The translations under genes were made by a program, and so were the position numbers. From the NCBI GenBank assembly GCA_040954595.2, contig CM082580.2:7356390-7420389 (forward strand): 64,000 bases of DNA. The letters run 5' to 3'. This document shows, piece after piece, positions 31,870-64,000 of the stretch; the stretch's first letter is position 1, and the number at the start of each line of letters is the position of its first letter. The notes under the pieces are model-generated. The model was not told the origin of the DNA. It saw only the letters and a program-made list of their open reading frames with translations, and searched no databases. Source of the stretch: Balanoglossus misakiensis (taxonomy: Eukaryota; Animalia; Hemichordata).

Positions 31870-32180
31870 TTATATATAATTTCATATATGTATATCAATA
31901 AGTATATACTAGTATATATGCTTATTAATATACAGATTTTAAAAATTATAATTCTTTAGATATATATATATATATTATATATATATAAAAATTATAATTT
32001 TATAAATCTGTACTTATTAAAATATATAATATATATAATAAAGTTATATGTGTGTATGTATTAATATATCAATTTATAAAATTATATATAACGTGTACAT
32101 ATTATATGTATATATAAATTTATAAATTTTACTTATATATATATTAAATTTTATTACTATGTCATATTCATATTTTATTA
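31870..32180. repeat. AT-rich low-complexity / (TA)n region with an internal palindrome
   Basis: Almost entirely A/T; inverted arms TACAGATTTTAAAAATTATAATT (31931-31953) / AATTATAATTTTATAAATCTGTA (31990-32012) surround a (TA)n core. Confidence 0.8.
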
Positions 32181-34175
32181 TGTGTTGTTGGTGTTTCAGT
32201 AAGACTGAGTCCGATACGAAGAAAGATAGATAGATAGATGGATGGATAATGCGTGTGTCTATTTGCCCGTCTGTCTGCAGTTTGTCCCTGTCTCTGTATA
32301 TTTATGATATGATTTCCTGCTAATCTAGCCAGGACATGGACACCATATTAACCGATCTATGAGTTACAATGACTTGACACTTTCAGGAAATGTGACATTT
32401 ACATCCATTGTATGCATGCTGCTCCCCATTAAACTCACTGAAAAAAACCCACTATGTGCATTGATTTAATTTTGAAAAGATAGTTGTTCTGTCACAAGAC
32501 ATGAATTTCAATCTGTGTGTTACAATAATGCACAACCCCCCCCCCCCCCACGCATTATATCTTAGTTCATATACATAACGTTATGCATTAATGTGTAGAA
32601 TATGTGTATACCGGTATATAGGTTTTTAAACATTAATAATAATTATTTTTATTTGGAAAAAGAAAAAATTTCACAGAGCATAATGATATTTGATTTAATT
32701 TTCAAGAATAAAATGATGCAAGACAGAAAACAAGATTCATTAAAAATCTATAAAAAAAATTACTACTATACTATTATGGATATCGTGGGGTTTTCTTTCT
32801 GGTGAAAGAACATGAAATATGGATCACTTTTTGGTCACATACATGCAAACATGTAGTTTATTGTCTGTTCAAGTAGTATCACGCTGCCTAGATCAACCTT
32901 TATCCCTGTCAGAAGTTTACATTCTTATATTTGTACAGATCAGGTACATTACCAATTCAAGAGGCCGTGAAAAGCTGAATATAAACAAGTCTATGTATCC
33001 CACTAATCTAAAAAATCTCCACTGGGAGGACGCAGAACTCCTGCCCTGACGTATTATTACATGCTCTAAAAACGCCGTGGAAGACAAGCTTGTAAAAGAA
33101 CATAAATCTCTCTCTTCGAGGTGTACTGTGCCACCCTGACAGGCCGTGACAACCACATCGGTCTGATCAGTTCACATTCAACGCTAGTATCATCCATATG
33201 ATAACTGAACAAGGGGTGGTGACCCCTTCCATCTTACAAACAGTACACCCTGGCCCTGGTTCTTTCAGCTTTATTCTGGGACTCCCTGATTGTTTGTTTG
33301 GGATCTTGCCTTCTGAATAGCCGTCAATTCAAGCCCGGGCTCAGTTCAAAAAGTGACAAACACTCTGGGCTATGACCGCATTCCAGCCAAGCAAATTGTT
33401 GGCCTTTAAAATTAGCCTTCTTCCAAAATGATAAAACAATTATATAATCCACCAATCAGATTTTATTATGAGGAAGTGTCCTACATAAACATTTTACCAC
33501 TATTTGACAGTGTTGATTATTTTTTCTCTGGGTGGCTTACATAAAAAAAATTAGCTGGGCCTCAGTTTCAAATACTTGGTAACTTTATATCTCTACGGTA
33601 TTATTGAGCAGACAATTTTTGACTGAAAATCAAAAACTATTAAAGTTAATGGCCGATGTACTCAAACACATTTAGTTCAACATTGCGGTGAAGGGTTTTC
33701 AAATACAGCGAGTCAGTGTTGTACAGCTTACAATGCCGTATTATTAAATTTTTTGTGTTCTTTTATCTTTTTTTCAATAAAAGGGACCCTTTCTCGTGAA
33801 ACACAATAGGAGCCATAACCGGGCGCGCACAATTACATACAATCACAACACAAACCCGGTGGACGGGAACGCGCCCGAAAGAATTTGCCGGTAACCTTTT
33901 CTTATGCCGAAATTCTAGAAATACTGAACCAGAAAGACAATTACGAGACGTGATTAAACTGCCGTCCATTGCCGCGCACCACATTTTACCTTTCGTCGAT
34001 AACTGCTCGGCTAATAATCCGGAAATCTTCTCTTCGGATGAGCTGTATCATCGGGGTGTAATATCTGCTTCAACGTAACCTACTTCCCACGCATCAAAGA
34101 TGAAATCGACATCAGATGAAATCGACATCACTTCCCGATTAAGAAATGTTAATTTGCAACATTTTTTTTACCTAC

Positions 34176-34717
<542 letters not shown>

Positions 34718-36114
34718 TCACCCGCGTCGAAAAACACATGAGACTGCATGTAACGTATGGACACAGCTACTGTATGGGCAAAGCATACGTAGCTCTTCTC
34801 TTGACTTGACTTACTCCCGCTGGTAGGAAAGTGAAATTCGCTCGGCAGATCTTGGGCAGTTTTAAATCCTGAAATAGAAAAGCAGGCAGCAGCGCCCATT
34901 ACGATGAAACAACGCAATTTTATATCCACATTAATGATGATATTTTTCGCATCAATCGAATCAATGGGTCGCAATTATCGCGGATAAATGTCATTTTTTA
35001 ACGCGCAGAACATTTCGGCACCCTTCAGTAATTGGCAAGGCGTGTACGAAAACAATGGGCGGGAGGGTCACTGTTTACAAAGCGCTACATGGTAACATGG
35101 GCCATTAGGTCAAGGCATCTTTTCACAGACAAAAACGATTTGTCTATTTCAACTTTCTGAATCGAGAAGAGCACTGGTTTTTGACTGGGGGCAACGTTTT
35201 ACGTTCAGTGTTGGTGGCGCAAAAATAAATAGGATATCCAGCTGTGAGCAAATTGAAGTTCAAGGTACCCACAGCAAACTTTAATTCATCATATATCGGT
35301 GACGCTTTACAATTACTGTTTTGTCGGCTATGCCCACAGTTACTATGCCCAGCCCTCCTACTTGCATTCTCTGACTTAAGACTGAAAAAGTGGGGCGAGG
35401 GTGCTAGGAGAAATTTACACAGCTTGAAGATTTCACACCACACAAAAATTCACAGACTCACTGCCCTGGAGATTTAATACGCGCCTTCTTTCCACCAGTA
35501 GGACTAACCTAGTACCTCACATCCATGGTAGAACATTTTTTCACATTTTAAATACCTTAATCCTTGTTTTTAAAAGGCGTTCATCAGTTTATATTATGGC
35601 TGGTGTGGGCAAGCAAACTTTTCGTGCGTCTCACTGCCAAAGTAAATGAGCCGCAGTAAAAAAAATGAACGCTCCCTCAAACCAGCCATTTTAGGACCAA
35701 TTGTGAAAATTAATAAAAGTTGACACTAATGGGCCAATCATGGTCTTGACTGTGGCGGATATAAGAAGGCGGGCGATTTAGAGACGGTAAAATGAACTTT
35801 TACAATAGAGACTGTGCAAAACATCCGGTAATGTTCCCTATGTGTTTGTCACTGATATATTAAAGAGATTATTATAATCGACATAATTTTATATACCCTA
35901 CCACAAAGAGTACAATTATACAGGCCTGCAGCGACAGTTTGAACACTTTAGGCACGATCAGGTTTTTGCATGGTTTGATGACGTCTACACTTTTTATTGA
36001 GATGTGTTCCGTCATCATTTCAACTTGGAGTACCGTCATATAGGCCTACAACTTACAAGCATTTCTTGCTGCTGAGTCAAGTTGAATATCGACCGGGGCT
36101 GGCATCCCTCCCTA

Positions 36115-36265
36115 GTCGACATATTATGGAAAGCCGTTGGGGACCCCCGACAACTTAACTCAATACATGGGTAAAGTCCATAGACAAATGATAGGAACGC
36201 ATATGCTGAAAATATGACGCACATTGGGTGCCGGGGTCCCCAACGGCTTTCCATAACATATCGAC
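36115..36265. repeat. 33-bp inverted repeat pair (probable small MITE) about 1.4 kb upstream of the KCNH start codon
   Basis: GTCGACATATTATGGAAAGCCGTTGGGGACCCC (36115-36147) versus GGGGTCCCCAACGGCTTTCCATAACATATCGAC (36233-36265), 2 mismatches; no clear TSD. Confidence 0.7.
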
Positions 36266-37299
36266 ATAAGCTTAGGTTTATATAGGAAATAATTCTCCCC
36301 GGTTTGCGACCTTATGGGTAAAAAGAAAAAGTAGGCCGTCTGAATGCATGGAATCGGACCTTTTTACATCAAATTCAATTGAAGAGCCACCTTTCAGTAG
36401 GCGAAAATAGCGTGTATTCATATTACAGCGTCTGGCTGATAAAGTTTTCTTATTACGTCATCACATAATACACCATTTCCGTGTAAAATTTGATTAAATG
36501 AATGTGAAGTGATGATGTTGATAGAAATCGCTCCTCTTTTCTCGACTTGGTTAAAAATAACTCTACAGGGCCTAAAGTCGATCGGTTGAAAGGAAATAGT
36601 CACTACAGATGTCACATATAGTTGTTCTTCGCCTTATCGGGTAATTCACACAGTGTTTTCTTTTCAGTGAGATATAAAAACGACAGGTAAATGAAAATGG
36701 CAATCCCATCCAGGCGCTCGTATTACACACATCCGTAGAATTCCTCAGCGCAGTTCCTAGGATTGAAATAAAATTGTTCATGTTTTGCAGTGAAATATCT
36801 GAAAAGTTTCTAAACGCGCAAAACCAAAAATAATTGACCTGATGTTTTTTAACGTACAATTGTACATACTCCAACTGAACAGATAGAGCTGTTTGCCAAC
36901 AGTGCATTTGAAGAAAAGGGTTGTCTGCCATTTACTCTTGTTTGTCCTCTCGTCACCGATGCGATACGTGGTCATCCGTAATTATTCTATCCACACACAA
37001 AACATATTTGGTTTAAGGGCCATGAAGGAAGATTAGTTCTGATGAACTATATTTCATGGTCCCCACCAATTGTACAAAAACAATGTTATGTTGACAGATA
37101 CTAGTTACGTATCAGACACTTTCAAATTCCGAAAATGTTGACTGCAATACGTGTCGGGTCGGAGAATTTAAACTGAGCGTCCCACGGGTGTACGAGGTAG
37201 ACACACATACACTCAAGCCATTGAAAATCTCCATGGATACCGGATTCTGTGTAAATGGGTCGCGTATAAGAACAAACGAAATTTCGCGTTCTAACAGTT

Positions 37300-37560
37300 A
37301 TATTATCACTTCACGCTGATCCCAGTGTCTGTCGCAATTAGTGTGGTGACGAAAGTGGGGCGGTGGTGGTCTGGCGAATTCAGACACGCGCTCGGGGTTG
37401 CGTTAAGTTTCTCGACAACACTGAGACAAGGACGGACAACACTTTTCAGTTGGCTGCCAGTCAGAACACCGACGTCATTGCTCGCTGCAGCAGTTTCCAT
37501 GGCGACGTCTCGAGTTGAGGGCACCGTAGAGATTCCCCCGATGCATTATTCATGCCTCGC
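37300..37560 (-). promoter_or_regulatory. CpG-rich block with an X-box upstream of KCNH (candidate promoter/enhancer or non-coding first exon)
   Basis: Locally GC/CpG-rich; RFX X-box-like GTTTCCATGGCGAC at 37493-37506 and GACGTCA at about 37471; about 2.7 kb upstream of the KCNH ATG. Confidence 0.35.
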
Positions 37561-40080
37561 GATATTTGCAGATGCACAAATATTGAAACACAAATCACAA
37601 AGATGCCAGAGTACTGCCGGGCACTGATTAATTATTCATCAAAAATGTTAAAGAAAGGAAATCTTGTAGATTTACTTTTCGAGGTATATTCGGTGCTTTT
37701 AATATTTTACAACTACTTTTAATCAGATAAGACTGCTGCCTGTTTTCGTGTTGATATGTTATTCGTTGACCTGTACAATCCGATTTATTAATCTATAAAT
37801 ATGACTTCAGGACGGACTTTTGGGTGGAACAGTGCTAAAAATATTCACCGTCTCAGTAATCACTGACTTTACGCATTGACGGATTCCCCAATAAATTTAA
37901 CACAGAGAAGGGGTGCGTCCACGTATTTTCACGGAGCTACTGTGAACATTTTAACGAAAAATCTATGCATTTTTATACTGGATAATAAAGTACGTTGGAT
38001 CTAGTTCCCCAAGTAAAAGAAATCAGTTTGGTGATTCGTTGTTCGATCATAGAACACACTGATATTGCCCCCTGACTTTGTTGACACACCTCACTGAGAC
38101 CGTGGTTTATAGGGCCAAGAACTTGGATGTCGGGTGGTTTACAAGCTACGCCTCGCGTCCAATTTTGATCAAATTGAAGTACTGCATATACCCAGCTAAA
38201 CTGCATGAACGTAGAACTTTGTTGAGACAAAAGAATCAACTTCTGAACAAGGCACTTCGCCATCAATGAGTGTGGGTAGTTTCTAAATCTTCTTTCTATA
38301 AGTTATGGGACTTTAATATGAAGAGTGGTTGGCAAGTAAAGGCAAAGTTGACGGCGACCCTCTCTCAAGTTAAATGTCTGCAGTAACAACCATGATAAAA
38401 AGTTTGTGATTATCTATCATTTGTTTGCTTGAGCCAGCTGCACGCAATTCTTGACTGATTCGATCGAAGGTGCTTTGCCAGCTTGACCGACGGAGCGTTG
38501 AAAACAACTTGGACGGCAATCACAACCGAGCGCAAACTATCAATAACCTGAGCCATCGGATCGACTGTTTCTTTCCAACTAACCGTATCTTGGCACATGG
38601 ACATACCGCTACGTGGCGTAACATTGGCAAATAACAGATTGAAACGTTATTATTTTACAGCTAAGTCTATCTGAAATAAAGTCAGCGATGGGGCGTGGCA
38701 AATTTTCCATACAAGTGGTGTTCTCTGTTACTGTCCGAGAGGGCGCACTTCCATGGCTGGGGGGGGGGGGGGGGGGGAGAACCAGCAGTTATTCAGCTAT
38801 ATTAAATACAGGGAACCAGGAGTCACACGTTTGACTTACACAAATGATGTATTTATAGGCAACGCTGCCGTTTTACAGTGTGTAAATATCTACATATATC
38901 TTATTTTGTTACAATAAAACTCTTGTCCAAGAAAAGCCTGGTCATCAATTGGTCCCATCACGACATGTACATGTACAAATAACTGGTCCAAAATATTAGC
39001 TTTGATACTTCGGTGGGTAAAATTGGCAGTGAAAATGTTGAAAACACACCTATGATAAGATAGACACAGCAAAAATTACACAATCTATAAATAGTTACTG
39101 TCATAAGAAATTCAATACAACGATGGTTACTGAAGGCAATAATGTCAAAATACTGATACTAATAATAAAACACACACACACTGAAGATACTGACAATATA
39201 GTCACATTTCACAGCTGATTGTACCATGGTTGTTTAAACATTTTTTTTGCCAGGAGCACCATTGCAGTCTGTGAAGCAAAATACATCTGCCTGTCAACTG
39301 ACCTCCAAAGGTTCGCTCTTCCAAATGATCAGCAAATAAAAAGAAGAAATACACATTTTCTTCAGCCGTCGACGGCTGGTCTCCTGGTTTGCAAATAATT
39401 TAGACAAGTCATCGCAGATCTATTGCCGCAAGCATGATCAGCCACGCCAAGATGTGCACGTATGATAGTCACACCTTTAATAATCTGGATGAAAACTCGG
39501 TTCTTATAAAACCATTAAATCTTTAACAGATGTCGCGCGACAAATGTCATAAACTTCTTTCCCATCCACTAAATCATTTACAGCTAGGCTTAACATCATT
39601 CAGTTATTACAGGCAAAACAGAACCAGCATGCACTCTGACTCTCGGTGCTGTGATGCATCAACTCATCAGCCAAAGAATTTTTTTTTATTGGCCACAATC
39701 ACAGTCCCTTAATGAAACACTGCATTAAGTGGAGTGATGACATAAATTGTGAGCAGTCTGGCTGAGAAAGATGTCTTTGGTTATGTGTAATAGTTTCAAT
39801 TGCTCATGCTCCATTGTATGCTAAATATGGTGCCAGCTAGCTCAGACGCTAGCTGGACACACAGACCGACAGACAGACAGACACAGAGACTATAGAATCA
39901 CACAGATGTTTTGTACAATATGCATCTCCTGTCACACACCCCGACAATCACTCATAATTCAACACAAAATTTGTCTGAAATATTTATATTTTGTGGGTGC
40001 GAAATGCCAAGCAGTACTTTTCTGACAAGATTTTCTGATTGCTTGAGTTCCTGGTCTTCGTCCATATATACACTCTCACA

Positions 40081-43000: not shown

Positions 43001-46000
43001 CATAATGAGAAAATTACCATGTGTTGATCTGCTCCAAAAACGTGACGGCCAATTTTCCTTTTTGTTGGTTTTTGGTGAAAATATATTCTTTGTATTTCTC
43101 TGATAAGGCATGAGCTCTTAAAACTAAATTTTATAATTTGGTCATGGTACAGGCAACACCACCCTAACACATGTTTTATTCAATATTTTGACAATGCCTC
43201 TACACCTTGAATGCAGCAATGCAGACATACAAAAAAATATTCATACCCGTATTTTTCATAATTCATGCCAGTGTAGGGTGATTGAAAAGAAAGTGTGAAA
43301 AACCGGGTGTGAGTCATGAATTTCAAATCACACAAAACAGTGACGGAAAGAACACTTCAAAATGACCATGAGGAAGTACAGGAAGGACGATGCAGGAAGG
43401 CACGTTTGTCAATCAATTTTCATAAAACGTTTCCATGAAATAAACAGTTGATTAGGAAGTTGCTGGAAATGCAATGATGTTTCCTGAACAGGTGATGCCT
43501 TTGAAACACGACATGACGACTCACCCGGGTCACTTGAAAGTGATTGTACTTTCGTGGCCTTGATTTTGTAATCAAGATGGTGAAGATGGCCAATAGTAGC
43601 TCAAGTAAACTAATCAAGAAGCAATGAAGAAATCAACAAGAAATTGTCTCAGTGAGCAGTGTACCCAGTACCCATCCAGAGAAGTCTGCTTACACCCATC
43701 ATGCAATGCACTCTCCAGTGATTTGACCCTTAGCACCTAGTAAAAGACTATACCTTGTAAAAGACTATTTCAAAGCTCATCATTGTCTGACTCTATAGGA
43801 GTTAGTGATGGAAACACCTGCAAAAAAGGAGGAACTTACCCTGTGATGAAGGTTGAAAATTATTCTGATGATCAATGTAGACTTGGTATTGTCTGTTTTT
43901 CATGGTGTGTAGCTTGGTCACCATATCCAGCTCTGCTTCCGTCTGGACACAGAAAAAAAAACCAAATTTAATGAAGTGATCACCGTTCAATAATTGACAC
44001 AATGATTTATCATACTGATGCTAGATGAAAGTTCATTACACATGTGCATGTATGTATACATGTATGTACCTACCAATGTTAACGTTGACAGGCAGTTCGA
44101 TTCAATCTCCTTCAATTTGCTAAACACTGACACACATGTACTTTCTGATGGCGTTGAGTATTCCACTGTCAAGGTGTCTGTGATGGACGGAGATGAAGAT
44201 GTCTGGAAAATACAACAAAGAGAAAAAAAGCAGATGTACATGTAGATCTGCAGCTTCAAGACCCAACTTCCTTCCGACATCAAAACTTAATTCTCATAGA
44301 CTGACCTTTGACACATCCATTTCCATGCGTTTCAGAAGTTGCTCTCTCTCCTTCCGGATCTTGGCCAGTCTGGCTTTTTTCTCAGCGAGAAGTTGTCTCC
44401 TCTGTTCCACCATTTCTTCCTTTGCCCTGTCATAGCTACTGACAGTAACAGGTCCTTTCACTTGTGTACCTTCTTCTTCAGTGATGGGCATCATACAGTT
44501 CATTGGGTTTGGATCGTTCTGTGTGCCCTGCACTCTGTTGCTGCCATTCGGCGCAATATGTTCAATTTTTGATTCTGTGCAGCTCGGATTTGCATATTTA
44601 TTGACAACTTCTTTGGCTGCCATGGTAATGGGAGATGAAATGATTTCTCTCGTGACCGGGGAAGCTGTGAGAAATCTTTCATGTTTGATGTTCTGAAAAA
44701 TTGGTGTTGTGGTGGTCGTGAGGATGGGGCTGGAGTACAGACATCGTTCAGTGGCCGTCAACAGCCTCTGTGATGGTGCATTGTTTGCGGTGGGCTCATT
44801 CAATCTAAAACCAGTTTCACTGTTTTTTTCTTCTGTCAAAGTACCACCTATCTCTGTCAAGTGGCTTTCAACCGCAGAGCACTTCACAGCCACTGGATTT
44901 GAATTCACGTCATGCTGATATTCTCTGCAGTCTAACATGTCACCTGCAGCTGTGACATGCGCATCGTAAATCTTCTCACTGGCTGACACTTCGTAGTCTG
45001 AAAGATTGTTAACAGGGTGATCTCGATCTTTAGTTTCACCCAGAGGGAGTGTTTGAGTGTGTGTATCATCGCTCTTCGTGATTCCAAAATCAGGATTTAA
45101 TATCAAATTCTTTGTCCAGTCTAATCCCATGGTTTCTCCAACTACAGAGAATGGGGCATCAACATAACAGTCTGACAAGGTCTCATTTCTTGCGGTGTCT
45201 TCTGCACTTTCTAGCCCCTGAATTTGAATGTCTTCTTCACCATCATCAACAGTGTGGGTGCTTTGCCTGCCTGCAGAGCCATCGCTCATCTCACCTGTAT
45301 CTATCGGTGCAATCTGACCGGCTCTTCCGTCCTCTGCTGTGACCCCCTCTTTGTCTCCACCATCACAGGTCACGATCTCGGTCTCTTGCATCATGGACTG
45401 GATGACATCTACTCTTCTGTCATCATCATCACCATCATCGTCTTTGACACGATCAGGAACGTCAGCAGTTTCGTCGTCGTATCCACCGCACGCAGTTTCA
45501 TTCTCTTTGTTCTCAATGCCACCCCCTCGCACGCCATTCTCATCTTCATCTTCCTCGTTCACAGAACATCTCTGTTTTAGGTGCCGGAATCCTGCATGGA
45601 AGACTTCAGTTCTTCTCTTGAACTTGGCCGTTTTCTCCTTCTCCTTCGGCGTCACAGGGCCAAAGAAGATTTCATTTTCATCTTCACTGTCATCAAGGCT
45701 TAACCCAGCTTGTGGCCTGGAAGAAAAGCAGACATGGGTGCACTGATAACAATACCTGAAACCATCCAATATCTTCTTAAATCTTAGGCTTGAAGGAGGT
45801 CTCCATATAATTTACACTTTTCTAAAAAAATACTTGAATGTGATTGTTCACCAATACATTTAGTTTGTTAATGTTCCAAATCAGACGGCCAGCTTATTAT
45901 TGTGTTGACATACATGCATGCATGATACAGTCAGACTACAGTCTGACTCGAATTTTAGGCGGGGCATATTAAAACCCCTACATCATACCTGATCATGCAG

Positions 46001-51351: not shown

Positions 51352-54300
51352 TCACAATTTAGCTTCAGACGTCAAAGCCATTGTTTCTTGTAAAGTTTTC
51401 TCAAAGGTCTGATAGAAAAGTTGGCTGTTAGTTTCTTCGTTGTCCTTCCATGTCAGTACCATCAAACGCAGCCTGCAAACAACAGAAAACAGGGGGAAAA
51501 AAACAAGAAACTTGTTACGAGCCAAAATATGCAAGTAAAGTTTTCATAGTGTCAGTTTTTCAAAAAATCCACTTATTTTTTGCTTTTGTTGATATTTTTT
51601 CCCCTCAAAAGGTAAATTAATCAAAACTGCCACACAAGAGAAAATATCTGAGCACAGTTCCCGGAATGACTTTTGGCTCAGCTAAATTTCTCTGGTGTGC
51701 GGAGCCAGCTTACTTTTGTTTTGGCATGGAGTAAAAGAGACCATATCCATTGGGCACCATTGGAACCACACATCCAAGCAGTGACGTATAGCCAGCTAGA
51801 CTTGTGGACAAGATATAATTACCACCACCGCCACTGCAAGAGCATAAGAGACAAAAAGTTTGTACACGTAACTGACAGATTTCCCCAAATACTGCCCCCT
51901 GTGGCCAGCTCAGTTGGAAACATTTTCTAAAAGTGGTAGCTATTGGGGCTTTAAGTCCATAAAGTAAACTTGACCCACTCCCGTTCGTATTTTCGCACTG
52001 AACAACAACCAAAAAAGACAAATGTCACAATTCTAAGATTTCCTGGAATTCCCACCTTTTGGTGTAGGCTTCGTCTTCAAAAAGCTCTGGTGTCGGAAGA
52101 CCGTTCTCCATGGCAAGAATCTGCAAACCAAATAAATGACGATCGCATCCCGCATTCTCCTTGCCTTCTTCCATCAAAGTGTTTTGTTTTGCGACAGCTC
52201 TATGAAGAAGTTCCAACCTGTCCTTCGTCTATGAGATGTACATGCAAGGAAACAAAAAATCCAAATCACATTATTTTGATCAACATGACTTCAAATTAAG
52301 CATTCATGCAGTGTACCCAGAATTTGTTTGTACATGTGTGTTTGCCAACTTGACACAGACTGAGCCCCCCACCCCCTTCCAATACACATGTCTACTCACT
52401 GACGATTGTGGATCCAACATGGCGCGGCACCAGTCCACCATTTCCACTGAGCACGATCGAACGGTCTCTGTTCTGCCTCTGTAGAACTGCCTTGTGGTGG
52501 CTGTCTCATAGCATGGCCCTGGTCTGTGCAACAATGAATGAATGAATGAAGAATGAGAGAGAAATTGTGCAGAGCAGTACAGTACATTATTGCACAACAT
52601 GATTACAATATGATGTAAAACCTGCCTACACCGAACCTGTCTAATCTGGAAACACCTAAGTTTTACAATCCATAGAATCACATGTTAAAAGAACCTCCAT
52701 ACATTGTAAACTGGACACCTCTTGCAAACTAAATAATTTCTTCAGTATCTTTGGTGTCAAGTTCAGACAGGTTTTACTGTGCTATGGTTCAATACATCAC
52801 AGAGCAGAACAGTTTTATAAAGTTCAGTAGTCATATTTTTTATCAAAGATCATTATTAAGTATAAAAGACTTACTTTTTGTGTATTTTCATGTACGTCAA
52901 CTGCAACGCTAACTGTACAATTGCATCGGGATGTAACTTTTTCGCTTTTAACAGATTCCGATCAAGACTGGTCTCACCTCTTACCAAATCAATGTTATCA
53001 GTCTGTACAATTGGGGGGAAAAACTCTCAGTTTGAATATTTTCAAAAAAGGTGTTTGAATATTTTGAAAACAAAATCTCAAAGTTCCAGCTGAATTCCTT
53101 TCTAATGAGCCATTTCAAACAATAAATCAAACAAAAATAAAGAAATCCCACCCCTTTCTTGTAAATCTTGGCACCTTCATCAATATACTCCGCTACTTTC
53201 TCATCAATTGTAAACTTGATCTCCTCTGGGGGTGGGAGCTGCCTAATTTCCTTGGGACCCTGCACGACACAAAAAATTTACAATCAGTAGAAAATATATA
53301 ACCGATTCTGGTAAAACATCAACAGCTACAATCTTTGACAGTTCTTGCTTTCTCTGCCTGTTGCATACATTCACATGATTCAATACAATGAGGTGAGCAG
53401 AAAAATACACAATGCACTTCAGACTAGTGCTTACATGCAGAACATCATAGGTAATTACCTTCCATTTGCCTTGATTTTGCAGAATCCCTGTATAGGCAGT
53501 ATACACCATCACCATGATGGCTATTCCGTCAGCTGCAGAGTGCTGGAAATTGGAAGAAGAATTCCAGTCACTAAACACTTCGCAAAACAGGCAAAGAAGT
53601 GTATGTAGTTTGAATAAAGCCTTTATGTCCCAAGTTTGTATAAAATACCAAACAAATGAACTTAATACGGCAATGAATCACAACACAGTAGCAGTAAGCC
53701 TAGCCCGGAGACCAGGGCGTCGATTCTACAATTCCAACTCGTTACTAAGCGACCCTGATCGTTGCCAGGGCTACTATCTTTCAGCTCAGCAGGACATTGC
53801 TAGACTGTCACCGGGCGTTGGAATTCTAGAATCGACGCCCTGGTCTCCGGGCTACAGTAAGCCTGCAACAGGCACATAACAAATATCTGCATTTAACGTA
53901 AACTGTCTTCAACGTACGTACATCACCATTGAAGGCAATGGCACCGTTTCTGTGACTCATAAGCTGGAAGGGCTGATCAAACCATTGATTGTAGGGGTCT
54001 GTGGCGATAGCCTGATGACTCAGCTGCAAATAAAAAAACAACAGAAATTCAGACTTAGGCGGACAATGAATGGTGTTAATAATGTGGCCTTCCGGAAGCA
54101 TCCAAAACAAAATAAAATGACAATAAAAATGAATTGACTTGGCACCTCCAGAAGCGTCTCTGGTGCCGAATTCTGAATGCTTGTTAGAAGAACGCAACTT
54201 TCGATGGTTTTCAGTCGGTCTGCATTCTTCGGATCAATCTTGATCAAATGGTCACGCATCTGTCGGAGAAACAGTGTTATGACATGTTACAAGACTAAGT

Positions 54301-56971
54301 GTGTTTCCAAGTGTAACAATTCATTGGAACGTGACAGTAAAATCAAGTAAGTAAACGTAAAAACCTTTTTAATACCCAGAATTGGAAGCCAAAAACAGGT
54401 TGTGAGATATCTATGATGTTCTCTTTGACAATTTACTGTGCCCATACCTCTGTCCATGTTGTCCGTTCCAAGGCAGTCAAGGCCGCAACACTTGGCAAAC
54501 TAGGTTCTCGATCACACTTGGTCTTGATGTATTCAATTTGGCTTTAAAGGAGAAAAATGATCTATAGTTACCATTGAGTTCTCATTTTTGATGGATAAGT
54601 ACCAGTATGGCAGAGTTATTTTTCTTCGAATGAATTCCACTGGTTACCTCTGAATTTCAGGGGCAGTCAGAAGTTGACCATTCTCGTCCACAGCATTGAA
54701 GGTGAAGAAACGTCCGTTTCTCAGTATCACAAGGTGACTTGGGCATTTTCCTTCAGATTCTGTGACAAAAATTGAGTAAAAGCAGTTAAGTTAGACAAGT
54801 ATATTCAATTAGCCAACTATTTAAGCTATCTGATGCTTTCAATTTTCCATTTCCACAACTTTAATTTTGTAGTGCATCAATCGCCACTCAACAATATGGT
54901 GATGAATTGAAACATTGAAAGACGGAGTGATGATCCAGTGGAAAAAAAAAAGTTCACCACATTTGCATATTGATTGTGCCTCACCTGTCTTGAAGTGCTG
55001 CTCGAGCCAATCAAACGGCACGCCTGGTATCCTACACGTATTGAATAACCTGGAGTACTGAAACATGCTGAGGCGCTTGTTTCCCATGCGATCGATATCA
55101 ACTGGGATTGTTTCTCTGTGAAAATGAAATGACATAGGGAATGAACAAAAGCATTAGATAAATCTGTGCAAATCATATGTGTAGATCTGCGACAGTAGTC
55201 AACTCTTAACCCACTCATCTATGGACAATGAAAGGCAGAGTATTAATCACATGACCCACTTCTTGAGTCGATCCCAGAAATTCAGCATGTGCCAAAGAGC
55301 CAGTGAACATCGCTCTGCCTGCACTCCCTCCTGCATTGGCCACACATCTTCAACCATGGGCAAGTATCCACCCAGGTTGGTGTGGACTGCTGTGGAATAC
55401 CGCAAGCTGTGGTAGGCGTATTTCTCCCACCATTCTGAGATCTGTTGGAAGACAGGCAGGGAAAAATGTTTTTCGGAGATAACGATGCAGGGAAAAATGT
55501 TTTTCGGAGATAATGATGCAGTGAAATATGAGACAAGAAGGTAAAAATTAATCGTTGCGAAACAGTTGCCGCTTTTGATAATGCGAAAATTTCCTGTTGC
55601 GAAAATTTCCTGTTTTACAGTATATTACAACCATAAAAGTATGGATGAGTATATCGATCTTTGTACCACAGTGCTCTGCAAGAAATAAGCTTAGACAAAA
55701 CATTTTCTCTCACTTTAGTACTATAACCTGTTTAAATTGCTAGGAACTCACCCAGTTTCTTTCTTGTTTGCTCCTCTCCACTAATTTCTGATGCAGTTCT
55801 TTGCCGACGCCTTCCTCAAATGCCTTGACAATCTGAGCAGTTTTCTTGAATTCATCCGGGGTTACATGTGGTTTTACTACAAAAGGAGAAAAAAACTTTT
55901 TGGTAGAAATCTGCTGCCAGGGATAAGCTTTACAGGTCCGTGGGGTAAAACACAACACAGTCTGCAGGGGTCCATGCAATCATGGTTGGAGGTCAGGGTC
56001 CATGCAATCATGGTTGGAGGTCAAATGATTGATAATTACAGGTAGATACTGGTACCTGAATCTAGGTATCTCTTCAGTGTTAACTGCAATGGCGGTACAG
56101 GCAAAGATGGCAGAGTGTCTTCATTTTTCAGGGTGTTCTCTGAAGCTGTGCTTGACATCCTGATGCTGCTTGCGCTGCTGCCTAAAACATATCTGCGAGA
56201 AGCAAGCTAAAAATACAAAGTGGACAAAATGGCATTTCAGCAAGCAATACGCTGGAAATTTACTATTTCACAGTTCACTTTTCAGTGAAATAAGTGGAAC
56301 AAAATGTCACTAATTACAACACACTTTATTTCAATAAAAAAAACGTTGATCTTTATTAATATGATTTGTTTATTGGCACCCTGAACATATAATATAACTT
56401 TGAATAGTGTTTGTGGCATGGAGTGACCAAAGTTTGAAGTTGAAGATTTGGCTGACCCCCTTTGATTGTCACCCTGGCAACAGCATGGAAAAAGTAGCAA
56501 AAAATTTACCTGTACCGTGGACCTAAGTTAATGCAACACAATGTGCCTTTTGATAGTATGGAATTTAAACCTTAGGCTTGGGTACAGAGGTCAAAGACCA
56601 GTATCGGGGGGGGGGGGGGGGGGGGGCGTGGGCGTGGCTCAGAAATCTGAACACAAACTCTCTGAAAAATCAACTCTACCCTATACCCTTGGCAAGCCAA
56701 TAAAATTACTGATCATTTATTTTTTTCACGCGAGTAGAAACCGCCCTTTTAAAGCACCGTACATGCATGCGAGAGAACATTTATACATTTATCATGTTTA
56801 TATACAATGAATGTGTGAACTTTAACACCAATGTCACCGTAACAAGCAAATCAGACAGTAGCAGCACAGGTCGCACCGAGCGCTTCGGTTTCGAGTTTCA
56901 TGCATGCCGGAAGTTCTTGACTCACTTTAAGACCTTACCTTAACAGAAGTTCGGCGCAAAATTGCAAGCAT
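51352..56971 (-). CDS. CROT: Carnitine O-octanoyltransferase (choline/carnitine acyltransferase family), 633 aa from the first ATG or 606 aa from the second Met; C-terminal PTS1 AKL
   Basis: Exons 56971-56939, 56206-56056, 55876-55752, 55441-55260, 55115-54985, 54759-54648, 54541-54448, 54259-54146, 54023-53922, 53542-53459, 53259-53152, 53002-52875, 52523-52400, 52228-52056, 51833-51714 and 51472-51352 (1902 nt, in frame). Motifs: LPSLPVP, catalytic GDHSAADG, LHPDAIVQLALQL, CYETATTRQFYRGRTETVRSC, GCDRHLFGL and the CROT-typical SGGGGNYILSTSLAGY...GCVVPMVPNGYG. The 54146 donor (GTGCCA) and exon 1 are the least certain. Confidence 0.93.
53701..53854. mobile_element. 154-bp MITE with 38-bp TIRs and a 9-bp target-site duplication, in a CROT intron
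   Basis: TIR TAGCCCGGAGACCAGGGCGTCGATTCTA(C/G)AATTCCAAC at 53701-53738 and 53817-53854 (1 mismatch); direct repeat CAGTAAGCC at 53692-53700 and 53855-53863. Superfamily not assigned. Confidence 0.9.
55456..55521. repeat. 31-bp tandem duplication next to a CROT splice acceptor
   Basis: GCAGGGAAAAATGTTTTTCGGAGATAA(C/T)GAT occurs twice. Confidence 0.85.
55968..56023. repeat. Perfect 28-bp tandem duplication in CROT intron 2
   Basis: GGGTCCATGCAATCATGGTTGGAGGTCA occurs twice. Confidence 0.9.
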
Positions 56972-58504
56972 ACCTTTAGTGCTATGAAACTAAACCTTTG
57001 GACACCAGATTCTGTCTGAATGCAGCTTGACCACTCACTACATGCAGCAGGGTTATTTACATAAGGTGAATGAAGTCGCCCTCAACGCCGGCTGCTCAAG
57101 GAATTGCTGAAGGTCGTTTTTGAGGGAAATGTCTTGATCCGTGACTCAATTTATCCTAACGCTGAACAACGGTCGTGCAGAATTTCTTTTTAATGAAGAA
57201 ACATGAAATTTCTGTCCCATGTCGACACCTTCTTCTGCTACATATGTCGAACCAACACATTTGCTCAAAATATTTTTTTTCCTGGAACTTGCTTGATGAA
57301 TGTTGCCAAATTTGAAATAAAGTATACACAAGAATCTATTACAATTTGTAAAAGTTTTATTGTTTTATTTCACCAACTTGAACCAAATCTTATTTCTATG
57401 TAAGCTTGAATCGTGGTTGTCTTAACAGTGAACAAACATGGTTGAAAACAAACTCTGTCATAAAAATTAAATTTTTAACAAACGAATTATGTTACTTTGC
57501 AAATACATCCAGAAAGCTAAAAGACAGGAAGTTTCCAAAGTAAAACTTGGGGGGTGGGTGAAACGATATTACCTTTCATAGTTTCCAAGAAATGCAATGG
57601 TCCTATTTGTGCGAGTTGACATCAAGTAAAGCAGTCATGTCCACCCCTAAAAAACTTTTAATAAAACAATTTTTAATATAAGCTTACATGATCCATTTCT
57701 TTGGGTTTTATGATGCAAAATTGAAAGATCCATACTTTGGAACTGTTTGCATCCCTCCTCATGACAGAATACAAAAAATGTGTATTTCTTTTCCCCCACT
57801 AACATCTACCACCAAAATAATACTCTATACATTGAATACAGTCAAATTTCTCATGTTAATAAATCCTTAGGCAGTAACATTAAAATCAACAGCAATGGGT
57901 TATTTTCGTGACCCATGAATGACCCTTCCCCATCCTGGTTTTTCACTGGTATGAGTTGGCCCACTTTGGTGACTAAATCACGTGATCCTTTGAACTCTGA
58001 CCTTCTGGCAACGCATGGGGATCTGTCCCTGGAATGGGGTCACAGTTCAAGGGTTAAAACAGAGTTGACTTTTTTCCCTTACGACTACCCTTGCAAAAAG
58101 ATACAGGGCAAAAGCAGTCAGTTTTTCCTTTGCTTCCTGCTATGGTTTTCAAGTAAAATTTCGCTCCTAACATAAAACTTCTTAAACACATATTTCTGAT
58201 AAAATCTATAGTTATCGATTTATATTATATTTACAGCACTAGCATAGACATTGGCAGTGACAGTTACTGTGAAAGTAAACTTCCTATAATATCTCTATGA
58301 ATAAATGTTCTTTTAACTAGAACAAAAACAACACGTTTGACAACAACTTGAACAATAAAGCATTGTTAAAAAAAATTACAAAGAGATAAAGCTTTGCACG
58401 TGGGCTGGCAAGGCAAACTGGTTGCGTGGCTAACTATCAACAGAACCAGAGTATATCTTTGAGCTGTTTGTCTCGTTTGTCTTTGACATCATGTATTTCC
58501 TTCT

Positions 58505-61500
58505 TCATGCTTTGAAACTGTGGGATACAAAAATAATAATGGACATGTCAGCTAAAAAAGAGGATATCACTGCAGTCGCTAACAAAGACTTTGGTTTTGA
58601 CTCTTTTCACCGAGTTTGCTGTCTTTCCCCAATCTCTGACACTGACTATGGTTGCCACCATCTTGTCTGTTTGTTTGGACAGCATAATGTCTCATGGCAT
58701 TGACCGTATGCAATAAAACAACGCCCTCAGAGGATTGGCTCTATGTTATGTTCATAATGACACTTCACAACACATAGTAATCTGATCATCACTGGGCACT
58801 GTACGTACAAAACCAGAAATTTTGTACGGTTTTCAAGAAACAGTACAGACACTACTAGGCATGTAGGCTTGGTTTGGCACATGCGCATGAGACTATCGTG
58901 GCCCTTTAAAAGTCTACAGTGCAAGAGATTTACCTGTCCAAGTACGCCTTCACATTGTCGTAACCGCTCTGGCGAGCCAGATGAACCAGAATGCCGGTTG
59001 CATGGCGACCGGACTTCCTGCGACAGAAACTGCAGTTGCACACACCGCGACACGGCGGACAAGCCCAGTTCTGCAACGAGAGAGAAATAGGTAAGTTCTA
59101 CCTTCAGATTCTGATTATCAGACGAATATGAAAACAGACCATCACGACATACTATGCAGAGGTGTGGATGCATTTGATCATTGGGAATTCAAAGTGTCTT
59201 CATAAATTGCAGCTCCGCAGCCAAATCTGTGCCTCTGCAAGTGTAGTGGTGAATATGAGCGGCCAGACAGGAATAATTGACAGATGTATACGGGTACTCA
59301 CAGGATCTTTCAGAGCCCTCTGTGCGTCTTCTCCGTAGCGATTGCGAAGACACGGCCCACAAAACTGACCACGAACACCTATGCACACTCCCGATCGACA
59401 CGACGTCTTCGTATCGTTTGTTTTTTGACGACACTGATGACAGGTTGAGCCCTTTAAAAAGAAACAAGATTTAGATGTCAAGGTCAAGAAACAAGATTAA
59501 GATATCATGGTCACCTTTCTTGACCCTTTCACCGCCATGGGTCAAGTTCAAACCCATTGTTTTCTGTGGTAAAGTTGGATCATATTTATTCATATCTTAC
59601 CCGATAACTGTTGTACACTTTGTCAGCGACGCAAAATGCAACTGCGTCCAGGTCTTCATCTGTGATCTCCTCCACTGGCTTGGGGATGCTCGGGACGGGC
59701 TGATAATTAGACTGTCGTCTCTTTGGAACGTACTGTTAGAAAACAACAAATAAATCACATCAATTCCATGTAGTTAATTGGAATCAACTAATTTCGATTT
59801 TTTGTTACATTAAGTAACACGACAGTACCTCATCAAACCAGTCCATTTCTTCTTCCTCATAATCATCATCATCATCGTCGTCATCATCATCATCATCATC
59901 ACTATCCTTCTTCGGTTTAGACTTGAAAAGCGACGGGCCGAATTTAATGAACAACTTCTGAAAAAAGCAAGGAAATCACACGTCAGTCAGTACGATGGTC
60001 ACACATTTAGAATAGCGTGATTCTTCCAAGTTGTCATCGGTGGGATTCGTGCAATTTGACAACTTTGACACTATATCTAGTTTGGCAATCAGGATGCTTG
60101 ATTAGTTTGTACAATTTGGGCAAACCATGCCAGCTGTCGAAAACAGTGAAAGAGTTAAGCCATCATCAGGGCTTTTTTACATTGCATAAAAACAGAAAGC
60201 CATTTCAAACCCGAATGATTTCCCATGAGCTATGGCAATTTCAATTGATGGAAAACAAAAGAATCATTAACATAACAACTGCGTTGTTATGCAAACTAGT
60301 CACTAAAGAACCACACTAAGTATAAGTATCCCTGGAATTCTTGCCAGATGGTATATTCACATTGTCCACCTTTGCCGCCATCAAATTACCTTTCGTCGTG
60401 GAGAATTCTCATCGTCGCTGCCTTCCTCCCACTTTCTTTTGGTTGAAGACCTAGTCAGGGGTGGCCGTGGTCGGGCAGTTCGCAAGGGATTTCTCCTTTT
60501 CTCTGCCAAGTCGAACGGAAATGATCTTCTGGAGCTCACGGGTTTCTGTGAAATGTTGATAAATAAAAGAAAATACTAGTATTACAGTTCATAAATTTTA
60601 TTTTAACAACAGACTATAAAAATAGCACCGTATCTGACAGAACTCGATTTTCCCGCCATTTTGATAAATACTACAAAATGACCAGAATAAAACACCACTC
60701 ACTTTTGGAGGATCTCTCTTGATTGGTAGGATTCCAGGGATCCTCTTCAGTTCTGCCAGCAACTGGTTTAGCTGAGCAAAGACAAATAAACAAACATAAA
60801 ATTCATTTCATTGACACAAGTTTGCTGTAAAAACCATTTTATTGTTTAGTCTTTGTCCTGCACCCTGACAGATCGTAGACAAAATCTGAATCACCTTTCC
60901 TGGCACAAATACTTTTGGCATGATAATACAATCTTATCACCCTGCTATTTCAGAAACCTCCTACTCCTACAAAAATATTATCTTGCCTACCATTGCTTTG
61001 TTCTCTTTGATGTTGAGTTGTCTGTTCTTCTCATACTCTGATATCTCCTCAGGCTCCACATCACTGTCCGCATCAGATACATCATCCTCCTGTAGTAAAA
61101 CAAAGAAATATCAACATGAACTGCAAAGCACACCAACCATGATTTTTTTGAGGGCAGAGGCCACATCTTGGCTTTACAGGAAAAAAATAATGGCAATTCA
61201 ATATATTTTTTGCATACCTCATCTGTTTGTCTTTTGCGACGTTTCACTTCTTCAACTCTTGCTACATTATCTGGCTGGCTTTGAGGTTTAATCTACAAAA
61301 AAATAAGAAGTATCAAATTTAATGAAATATTCTGCACATCAAAATGATGTCACCCAGCTGAGAAATTGTCGTGAGAGGCTAAGCAGAAATTGAACTCACC
61401 AAAGTGGGCTTAGCAGCCTTGACCTTCCTGTTGTGGCCAAACAATCGTATCCTATCACTGTTGCACGGCAACCACTGATCATAGCGCTGATTCCAACCTA

Positions 61501-63910
61501 CATAGTGGATCTGTATGCGACCAAGCTCTTCATTCACATTGATGATTTTAGCTGGATACCTTTGACAATCAGAGGAAAAAACAACTTTACTTTTCACAAA
61601 GGACATATATACAGTGATGAATTAAACTAAACAATATGATACCATAACAATGACATTTCAATTCAAGATTCTGCTCCAAAATTCGAGGATTACTGCTTCA
61701 AGCTTACATACAGGTGCACGTAGCTATACGCAATTTAGAAATACACAATTTTGAAATTTTGGCAAAACATGATAATTTCACTCCAATATGCAGCTATGCT
61801 GAATACATTCCTACCAATTTCTGAAGTTATCCGTTGCTTCGATTTTTGCCCCAACTCTGAAGTCGATTCCATCCGTTGTCATGACTTCACTCTCAGACTT
61901 GCCGTCTTTCTGATCCTCACCATTCAGAACTTGCACATCTTGTTTCTTCTGATCCTCGACGGGAACTTCCATGCTCTGTTTCTCACCAGCAGTTGGTGGG
62001 ATGAAAAGCTTCACGGCTTCTCTGGGTCTTTCTTTCAAACCGTCTGAGTTTTTCATTTTATTGGTATCTTTTTTGGTATCTGATTTGCGATCATCTTTCA
62101 CCATCTCTTTTCGACTGCCCTGGGTTGGTTCAGCAGCCTTTATCCTGTTGTCATGTGTACGCGGTTGGACCCGATCACTGTTTAATGGCAACCACTGATC
62201 AAAGCGTTGATTCCAGCCTAAATAGTGGATGTGCACATAACCAAGTCCGTCTTCTTCACCGACATCAAGAATTTTAGCTGGATACCTTTTACAATGAGAT
62301 ATAAAAAGCGTTAATTCCAACGTAAAAAGAAAACTTTGTTACTAAGCATTCAAAGTTGGTCAGCCATGTTACAATCGAAATCTTACCATTTTCCAGAGTT
62401 ATCCATTGCCTCTACTTTCATTCCACTTTTGAAGTCGATTCCAGCTCTTGATACGACTTTTATAATCTCAGACTTGCCGTCTTTCTGATCCTTGGCGATA
62501 ACTTGCGTATCCTGTTTCTCATCAATAGATGCTGTACTGGAACTCTTCTCTGATTCTGCAGCACTTTCTTTCAAATCATCTGATTTCTCCATCTTCTTGC
62601 TATCATTTTGTGATTTCTGATTCTCTTTCGTCCCTTCTTTGGGGTTCTTTTCCTTCTTTTCCTACAAATGAACACAATCAAGTGATGAGACATGCCACCC
62701 CTTCCACTGTCAATGGTTTAGCCCAAAAACCTATGACCTTCATACCAACAAAATTAACTCACCGGGGTTGGTTCGGGAGCTTTGATCCTGTTGTCATGTG
62801 TACAGGGTCGGACGCGACCACTGTCCAACGGAAACCACTGGTCGAAGCGTTGACTCCAGCCTAAATAGTGTATGTGCACATAACCAAGTCCAGATTCTTC
62901 ACCGACATCGATAACTTTAGCTGGATACCTTTTACAGAGAGAGATAAAAACTTTTTTTCAATGACAAAATTGATACACATCGATCATGATGACAAGGCAA
63001 TATGTGAAAGTCTCCACCCTTCCTCTTTCCATGATGCAATGCAATACAGTCAAACCTGTCTATAGTGTCCAGTCAAGGGACTTTCATAAACTGGCCTTTA
63101 TAGACAGGTGGTCTTTATAGACAGGTCAATTCATGCACATGTAAATTGCACATTGACTGTAACATAGTGGCCACTATATAGAGGTGGTCACTAACATAGG
63201 TTTGACTGCAATCACTCCTGTCTCTGATTCTTTGTGATGATGATGGAATGAGTCAGGAATCGCTAGGCAAAAAACCTGAATATTTCCAAACTTTCTTGCA
63301 GGATGCAGGCAAGTCACATTCTTACCATTTTCCAAAGTTATCCCTAGCGTCAATTTTCATTCCAACTTCGTAGTCAATTCCAGCTCTTGACACGACTTTA
63401 CTCTCAGACTTGCCGTCTTTCTCATCTTCCCCATCACCTTTGGCACCCTGTTTCTTCTGACCCTCAACATTAACTTCCACTTCCTGTTTCTGTTCAAGAG
63501 CTGCTGCGCTGGAACTCTTCACTGTTTCTCCTGTGCTTTCTTTCAAATCATCTGATTTGTCCACCTTCTTGCTATCATTTTCTGATTTCTGATTCTCATT
63601 CGTCCCTTCTTTGGGGTTCTTTTCCTTCTTTCCCTACAAATGAAGACAATCGAGTGATGAGACCTACCACCCCTTCCACCATCAATTGGTTCAGCCCCAA
63701 AACCTTTGACATTCATGCAACATACCAAAAAAAACTTAACTCACCAAGGCAGTTTCAGCAGTCTCTACCTTGTTGTTGGGTGTACAGGGTCGGATGCGAT
63801 CACTGTTCAACGGAAACCACTGGTCGAAGCGTTGACTCCAGCCTAAATAGTGGATGTGCACATAACCAAGTCCAGCTTCTTCACCGACATCGATAACTTT
63901 AGCTGGATAC
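58505..63910 (-). CDS. CDCA7: CDCA7/CDCA7L-family protein (C-terminal zf-4CXXC_R1) with an N-terminal array of at least 4 PHF20-like Tudor/chromo-barrel domains; 5' end outside the window
   Basis: Exons 63910-63745, 63633-63326, 62928-62763, 62661-62387, 62285-61815, 61559-61400, 61292-61218, 61089-60991, 60771-60703, 60545-60390, 59957-59829, 59732-59601, 59451-59302, 59070-58934 and 58517-58505 join in one frame (~834 aa in window). CDCA7 hallmarks: [56 protein letters not shown]...[16 protein letters not shown]...[16 protein letters not shown]...TGILVHLA. Confidence is high for the CDCA7 part and lower for the link to the Tudor exons. Confidence 0.88.
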
Positions 63911-63990: not shown

Positions 63991-64000
63991 TTTCATTCTA

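Follow-up and report, generated by a model that had tools for sequence, protein, structure and literature searches.

A predicted acorn-worm CDCA7 gene carrying an in-frame array of PHF20L1-like Tudor repeats

A predicted gene of the hemichordate Balanoglossus misakiensis bears on how CDCA7-HELLS picks the regions in which DNA methylation is maintained. The stretch of DNA analyzed, here called the window, spans 64,000 nucleotides (contig CM082580.2, positions 7,356,390 to 7,420,389). At 58505..63910 on the reverse strand (-), 15 exons and 14 GT-AG introns (96-432 nt) compose an open frame of 834 residues, in which repeated domains resembling the first Tudor domain (Tudor1) of PHF20L1 precede a CDCA7 module. 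In the reading preferred here, at least four such copies and CDCA7 would form one predicted protein, and the array would provide a weak multivalent grip on methylated histone tails; taken whole, this was given slightly less than an even chance, and its parts were weighed separately.

Exon phases were compatible throughout, and the first stop was the TGA at 58507-58505 that ends the 834-residue frame, so that the in-frame, stop-free splicing of Tudor exons into CDCA7 proposed by an earlier sequence-only reading held for the predicted model. The six Tudor-encoding exons of that reading exist, but a phase-2 intron within the Trp codon ahead of YPAK divides every domain in two, so that the exons add up to three complete repeats (R2-R4) plus the second half of R1; six domains were ruled out for the window, with 3.5 present. 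Exon 1 in the window (63745..63910) encodes the C-terminal half of R1, whose N-terminal half lies outside the window. Exon 2 (63326..63633) encodes a K/E/D/S-rich linker and the N-terminal half of R2 (about 63381-63326), and exon 3 (62763..62928) the C-terminal half of R2. They are followed by exon 4 (62387..62661), with a linker and the N-terminal half of R3 (about 62442-62387), and by exon 5 (61815..62285), which joins the C-terminal half of R3, a linker and the N-terminal half of R4 and lacks the phase-0 intron present after R1, R2 and R4. Exon 6 (61400..61559) encodes the C-terminal half of R4, which has diverged most among the copies and lies closest to the CDCA7 part. At 62120-62060, the intron after R3 was lost by a donor change and deletion of most of the intron; the remnant is coding and the frame stays open.

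The first exon in the window opens in phase 2, behind an acceptor resembling those ahead of the other Tudor halves, and the gene therefore extends past the window edge at 64000. Consequently the Tudor copy number is at least four, the exon number at least 15, and the start codon lies beyond the window; as the total repeat number also falls outside it, all counts are lower bounds. No further Tudor copies were found by tblastn with the repeats across the 64-kb window. A Pfam scan that took in 11 of the 15 exons matched all four C-terminal-half exons to Tudor-knot, MBT or MSL3-chromo (E 8e-6 to 0.03; two of the four above the curated cut-off), and matched zf-4CXXC_R1 (PF10497) to exons 13 (E 3e-17) and 14 (E 2e-17).

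Between the array and the CDCA7 module lies exon 7 (61218..61292), a junction exon of 25 residues with a basic cluster, no Met and an in-frame stop ahead of it. The junctions 61400/61292 and 61218/61089 are both in phase 0, with donors GTGAGT and GTATGC, and the introns concerned measure 107 nt and 128 nt, which leaves little room for a terminator and a promoter. The GTGAGT donor of exon 6 is homologous to the donors behind the R1 and R2 halves. In-frame Met codons are missing from the stretch between residue 440, in exon 5, and residue 573, which falls inside the HELLS-binding-helix-like segment described below. In introns 4-7 no phase-0 mini-exon was found that bears an ATG and has a donor matching 6/9 or more consensus bases, candidates being confined to introns 2, 3 and 8. 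An intact helix would thus need an upstream exon, from within the array or beyond it. On these sequence features, a single transcription unit was judged likely.

Weighed against this was the view that array and CDCA7 are not one protein, or that the fusion is only a minor isoform: the array could be the 3' end of a PHF20-derived gene abutting CDCA7, or a first CDCA7 exon upstream could skip it. Several observations count on that side and against a single protein. The CDCA7 models of two other acorn worms, Saccoglossus (290 aa) and Glandiceps (301 aa), are short and free of Tudor domains, with the finger as their sole Pfam match; an ATTAAA stands at 61323 in intron 6; phase-0 junctions would keep the frame under skipping too; and the 5' end of the gene lies beyond the window. 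The homologous donor and the short gaps speak the other way, and so does the lack, in introns 4-7 and exons 7-8, of a usable ATG from which a separate CDCA7 could start and keep its helix whole. Selection on the array (below) likewise indicates translation as part of something. Separate or skipped products were considered fairly unlikely. The Saccoglossus model (P0004) opens with 11 residues whose end resembles a translated splice acceptor; true 5' exons may therefore be missing from it, and a fusion there is possible. AATAAA candidates downstream of the stop are at 57369 and 57361.

The repeats are under purifying selection. Between domains, the ratio of nonsynonymous to synonymous divergence (dN/dS) was 0.21-0.34 (Fisher p<0.01) in five of six pairs, which share history and are not independent. 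The remaining pair, R1-R2, gave 1.2 on 5 differences and weighs against this result. Linker dN/dS was 0.60-0.79 and not significant in 3/3 pairs. Synonymous distances between most copies were 0.26-0.49. When neutral evolution was simulated, the 515 array codons stayed free of stops in 58, 3, 1 and 0 of 2000 runs at 0.05, 0.1, 0.15 and 0.2 substitutions per site, respectively. Three of four gapped comparisons between exon copies showed indels with lengths divisible by 3, the fourth having adjacent gaps of 17+2 at the site of the lost intron; those between introns 1 and 3 measured 2, 7 and 1. Linkers are 87-98 residues long and nearly neutral in charge, and domains carry a net charge of -3 to +1. 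In the domain halves of R1 and R2 (63745-63910 and 62763-62928), 1/28 synonymous sites differ, and in their linkers 13/50, a contrast that may point to recent gene conversion between these two domain exons.

Tandem repeats at a window edge, with R1 and R2 domain halves differing at 5 sites only, might also be produced by misassembly, or be decaying pseudo-exons. This was given next to no probability: the copies are 66-87% identical in DNA, their introns are distinct, dN/dS is about 0.3 and the frame has no stops. An assembly artefact was rejected on copy divergence, distinct introns, selection and the open frame.

Downstream of the junction exon, the CDCA7 module begins with exon 8 (60991..61089), which encodes an acidic stretch and the first part of a HELLS-binding-helix-like segment and in which homology to acorn-worm CDCA7 starts; the second part of the segment is on exon 9 (60703..60771). 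The segment is intact and aligns across seven CDCA7 proteins, in line with the earlier claim of an intact helix, and we infer from this alignment that it corresponds to the published N-terminal HELLS-binding helix (HLBH) named in CDCA7 (PMC11343034). Exon 10 (60390..60545) carries a basic region with an RRNP-x-R motif conserved in 7/7 aligned CDCA7 proteins, exon 11 (59829..59957) a poly-Asp/Glu tract, and exon 12 (59601..59732) a conserved segment preceding the zinc finger. The first half of zf-4CXXC_R1 is on exon 13 (59302..59451) and the second on exon 14 (58934..59070); exon 15 (coding part, 58505..58517) includes the TGA stop and a C-terminal end identical to that of Glandiceps CDCA7.

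The finger carries 11 Cys and was aligned without gaps to human CDCA7 264-371 (8yv8). The equivalents of human R274, Q275, G294 and R304, all on exon 13, fall on identical residues, and that of S330, on exon 14, was placed by counting on from the alignment. These residues, among them the ICF residues R274, G294 and R304, serve selection of hemimethylated CpG and backbone contact (PMC11343034). The complete C-terminal module and the retained ICF-syndrome residues noted earlier were both borne out, and as judged by homology the module is an intact class I CDCA7.

A search with exon 13 matched 1696 proteins, of which the best 120 were compared. Outside the finger, the closest among these were CDCA7 of Saccoglossus kowalevskii (XP_006813976; 61% identity over 109 residues) and Glandiceps talaboti (XP_077979150; 54%), the 54-61% identity taking in the helix and the middle region. 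This affinity fits an enteropneust hemichordate as the probable source. The window protein thus shares with CDCA7/CDCA7L the 11-Cys finger, the ICF residues, the N-terminal helix, the RRNP-x-R motif and, with Glandiceps, the C-terminal end, but differs in at least 515 extra N-terminal residues with at least four Tudor-knot repeats. FxGF motifs of the vertebrate CDCA7 records checked are absent from it and from the other invertebrate records checked. The prototypical CDCA7 has the finger as its sole annotated domain; with Tudor-knot repeats in frame, the gene is placed as a CDCA7 variant.

To place the repeats, the second halves of all four were combined into a profile, which matched 827 representatives at E<=0.001; the best 150 of these were analyzed. 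By whole-domain score, the 150 were led by Ptychodera PHF20L1 and by a Glandiceps protein that likewise begins with Tudor1-Tudor2. Ptychodera flava PHF20L1 (XP_070533102) was the best pairwise match for 3/3 whole repeats among 147 domains (33/60, 37/60 and 35/57 identical), and PHF20 Tudor1 led the PDB matches of the repeat profile. The earlier assignment of PHF20/PHF20L1 Tudor1 as nearest kin was therefore supported by pairwise and profile scores, at 55-62% identity. Exon 5 gave leads in the ESM Atlas below 0.9 only (Tudor-knot and PHF20L1 clusters at 0.81). The site of the intron in the window repeats corresponds to profile position 21-22, where 11 of the top 45 profile rows, all fragments, begin, which suggests an intron position common to the window repeats and these relatives.

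Trees were built on 61 columns by FastTree (150 domains) and by IQ-TREE (33 domains: 16 PHF20, 14 others chosen from the best-scoring non-PHF20 rows, and the 3 window repeats). A clade of PHF20 and window repeats was neither rejected nor demonstrated (p-value of the approximately unbiased test, p-AU, 0.46; 0.56 with P0307), so that the origin was not settled by these trees. P0307, an 'outgroup' row grouping with the window repeats, is a divergent PHF20-type protein. The linkers were also compared with the PHF20L1 N-terminus, and the similarity score was reached by 5 to 170 of 300 shuffles; descent of the linker from that N-terminus was rejected as a demonstrated result, the similarity not being separable from shared composition. 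Both outcomes were counted on the side against the preferred reading.

Introns 1 and 3 are identical at 90/101 positions; the repeat unit includes introns and was thus amplified as DNA. By the origin proposed here, the Tudor1 exons of the lineage's own PHF20/PHF20L1 gene would have been copied ahead of CDCA7, and a unit of linker plus N-terminal-half exon, C-terminal-half exon and flanking introns would then have been amplified. PHF20/PHF20L1 Tudor1 (human structures 6L0X, 3Q1J and 3SD4) shares with the repeats D23 and cage positions 29, 47, 50 and 54. PHF20/PHF20L1 relatives have Tudor2 and a PHD finger, whereas in the window a low-complexity linker follows each repeat and the CDCA7 module follows R4; the window array is Tudor1 only, amplified on long linkers, with Asn for Y24 and Gln for E56.

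These replacements bear on whether the repeats still read methyl-lysine. Human PHF20L1 numbering was transferred by ungapped alignment with the Ptychodera domain. All complete repeats retain D23, Y29 and W50, together with an aromatic at 47 (Tyr for Phe) and at 54 (Tyr or Phe). Position 24 is Asn in 3/3 whole repeats vs Y/F in 15/17 PHF20-type Tudor1 domains, and position 56 is Gln in 4/4 repeats vs Glu in 15/17. Of the five-aromatic cage (Y24/Y29/F47/W50/Y54) with D23 and E56, four aromatics and D23 are thus kept, and a fully kept cage was rejected on the Asn at 24; the retained aromatic cage of the sequence-only reading stood for D23 and positions 29, 47, 50 and 54 and failed at 24 and 56.

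PHF20L1 Tudor1 weakly binds H3K36me1/2 and H4K20me1/2 (PMC13285377). In the same source several points weigh against methyl-lysine reading by the array: with Y24A in human PHF20L1, H3K36me1 binding is markedly weakened or lost; nucleosomes are bound by Tudor1 alone only at ~0.7-1 mM and without methyl selectivity; and D23 is also required for Tudor1 solubility, so that its conservation may be structural. Other reports are more permissive. Affinity for a small methyl-amine ligand survives both Y24A and Y24L, of which the latter opens the cage (10.1101/2020.04.29.069500), and cages of 2-4 aromatics are usual in Royal-family readers (10.1101/257485). Given the fusion, methyl-lysine reading was put a little above an even chance; with Asn at 24 and the effect of Y24A, it is plausible and weaker than claimed before. 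Of the multivalent methyl-lysine reader proposed in that claim, the array and the intact module stand and reading is plausible, but the cage lacks the aromatic at 24 whose loss impairs H3K36me1 binding in the human protein.

With a real fusion, the repeats might no longer be methyl-lysine readers and act as a methylation-blind tether (to DNA backbone, nucleosome or RNA) or as a protein-docking scaffold. This is what Asn at 24 and Gln at 56, found in all copies covering those positions, could indicate; human PHF20 Tudor1, with R24, has been linked to no detectable histone-peptide binding, and tandem Tudor1-2 of PHF20L1 binds DNA without methyl selectivity (both PMC13285377), while some chromo barrels bind no histone, a further point against a histone-reading array (10.1101/257485). 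Every complete copy nevertheless retains D23 and the four other aromatics. The lack of basic charge in the domains and of a Tudor2 after R4 argues against a DNA-driven mode: strong DNA binding by PHF20L1 needs Tudor2, and free DNA is bound by its Tudor1 alone no more tightly than at about 9 mM (PMC13285377). A methylation-blind array was considered unlikely.

The sequence-only reading had also offered methylated DNMT1 as a ligand, and the array could mainly bind such a non-histone partner (K142me1 type), delivering DNMT1 to a site opened by CDCA7-HELLS. The logic suits the pathway, human PHF20L1 Tudor1 binds DNMT1 K142me1 (10.1101/2020.04.29.069500), and the reader role of PHF20L1 may matter most for non-histone substrates, as PMC13285377 suggests. 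Nothing at the locus points to DNMT1, however, and the idea found no support there. In the human structure the site for the DNMT1 peptide is contacted or shaped by Y24, E56 and R49, residues replaced here by Asn, Gln and Gly, and an array would be better suited to a repeated ligand than to a single site. A DNMT1-directed array was regarded as highly improbable.

Under the preferred reading, a histone-reading array in one protein with CDCA7, the C-terminal finger would sense hemimethylated CpG after replication and the central helix would dock and activate HELLS, as homology to other CDCA7s suggests. The Tudor copies, on flexible linkers, would contribute an avid hold on lysines of low methylation (the PHF20L1 Tudor1 ligands H3K36me1/2 or H4K20me1/2), and remodelling, hence access of DNMT1/UHRF1, would be biased to chromatin bearing both marks. 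The observed/expected ratio (o/e) of CpG over the window is 0.59 vs 1.03 for GpC, consistent with a methylated host genome. In the block 32001-40000 CpG o/e is 0.89 vs 0.47-0.61 in the other seven 8-kb blocks, which suggests that this block is less methylated.

Whether such an architecture occurs elsewhere was examined among 202 CDCA7 relatives (the best 120 and 91 long ones of at least 528 residues, 9 being common to both; top rows of the 1696) and the 150 Tudor relatives. The repeat profile had no match at E<=1 among the 202, and neither finger nor helix had a match at E<=0.01 among the 150. When longer proteins were searched by words from exon 5, 0/158 candidates reached E<=0.001, which is weak evidence. 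The Tudor and CDCA7 architecture was not found in the literature searched, which was covered by title and abstract start, subscription papers and preprint supplements being outside it. In PMC10538959, which treats animal CDCA7 as a finger-only adaptor, 'Tudor' and 'PWWP' are absent from the main text and 10 supplementary files, and 'Saccoglossus' and 'Ptychodera' are absent from those files; the sole mention of Tudor in PMC11417364 is an author name.

The novelty suggested earlier for this architecture stands for the proteins and papers searched, but a Royal-family reader with a CDCA7-type finger is already on record. CHROMO and zf-4CXXC_R1 are joined in one chain in proteins of Acanthamoeba castellanii (XP_004340890) and Taphrina deformans (CCG81269) (PMC10538959); those have a class II finger and a single chromodomain and are non-animal, whereas the window gene is class I and animal, with a Tudor array. 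Among the 91 long CDCA7 relatives, a chromodomain was found in 12, including the Acanthamoeba protein, and PWWP in 5; Pfam confirmed 4/4 of those tested. One PWWP row is a long ZMYND8-like model and may be a mis-join. The PWWP domain is C-terminal in CDCA7 of three Mytilus species (P0009, P0013, P0037, P0052) and in P0122, on a 2-kb contig. Eleven chromodomain proteins are environmental (P0150-P0152, P0154, P0157, P0160, P0163, P0166, P0167, P0170 and P0181); in most of those read the chromodomain is C-terminal, in P0181 N-terminal, and none of those read has lost the helix or the RQ and RGQ residues. No description of PWWP-CDCA7 or of environmental chromo-CDCA7 was found in the literature searched.

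Like the window gene, the Mytilus and environmental proteins join helix and finger to a Royal-family reader, but the reader is of another family, in single copy and mostly C-terminal, and their origin was probably independent. Human CDCA7L (JPO2) is coupled to LEDGF/p75, a PWWP protein that reads H3K36me2/3 (PMC11640333); there the paralogue is coupled in trans, through the LEDGF integrase-binding domain, and in the window gene by fusion. With the chromodomain and PWWP fusions and CDCA7L-LEDGF, the Tudor array appears as a new form of a recurring pairing between CDCA7 finger and Royal-family reader.

Two neighbours of the gene were noted in the window. A choline/carnitine acyltransferase gene (about 52000-56200, -; Pfam PF00755 on 55247-55621) starts about 2.3 kb downstream, and we take it to resemble carnitine octanoyltransferase. 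At 44294-45811 (-), an open frame of 505 codons had no Pfam match and no ESM Atlas match; an IFFGP motif near its start presumably recalls the N-terminus of GTSE1/PSRC1, as a candidate only.

Judged from the sequence, the Tudor array would likely add a multivalent nucleosome grip to CDCA7. A broader view, possible but rather doubtful, is that animal CDCA7 has been wired repeatedly and independently to histone methyl-lysine readers (through PHF20-derived Tudor repeats here, a PWWP domain in mussels, a chromodomain in another lineage and, in trans, the LEDGF PWWP for vertebrate CDCA7L), and that histone-mark input chooses which methylation is maintained. Interest in the locus is tempered by a fusion possibly confined to one lineage, a predicted transcript, an altered cage, and reader-plus-finger fusions already on record. 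As read here, the locus cleanly illustrates exon shuffling and subsequent tandem amplification, along with in-frame intron loss, and the predicted natural fusion offers ready-made single-chain constructs. A selected, amplified array in an animal CDCA7, together with the PWWP and chromodomain fusions, suggests that histone-mark input has been repeatedly useful. If the broader view is true, hemimethylated CpG alone would not set the sites of HELLS remodelling, a histone mark (here likely H3K36me/H4K20me) would add its input, and the acorn-worm protein would be a single-chain coincidence detector.

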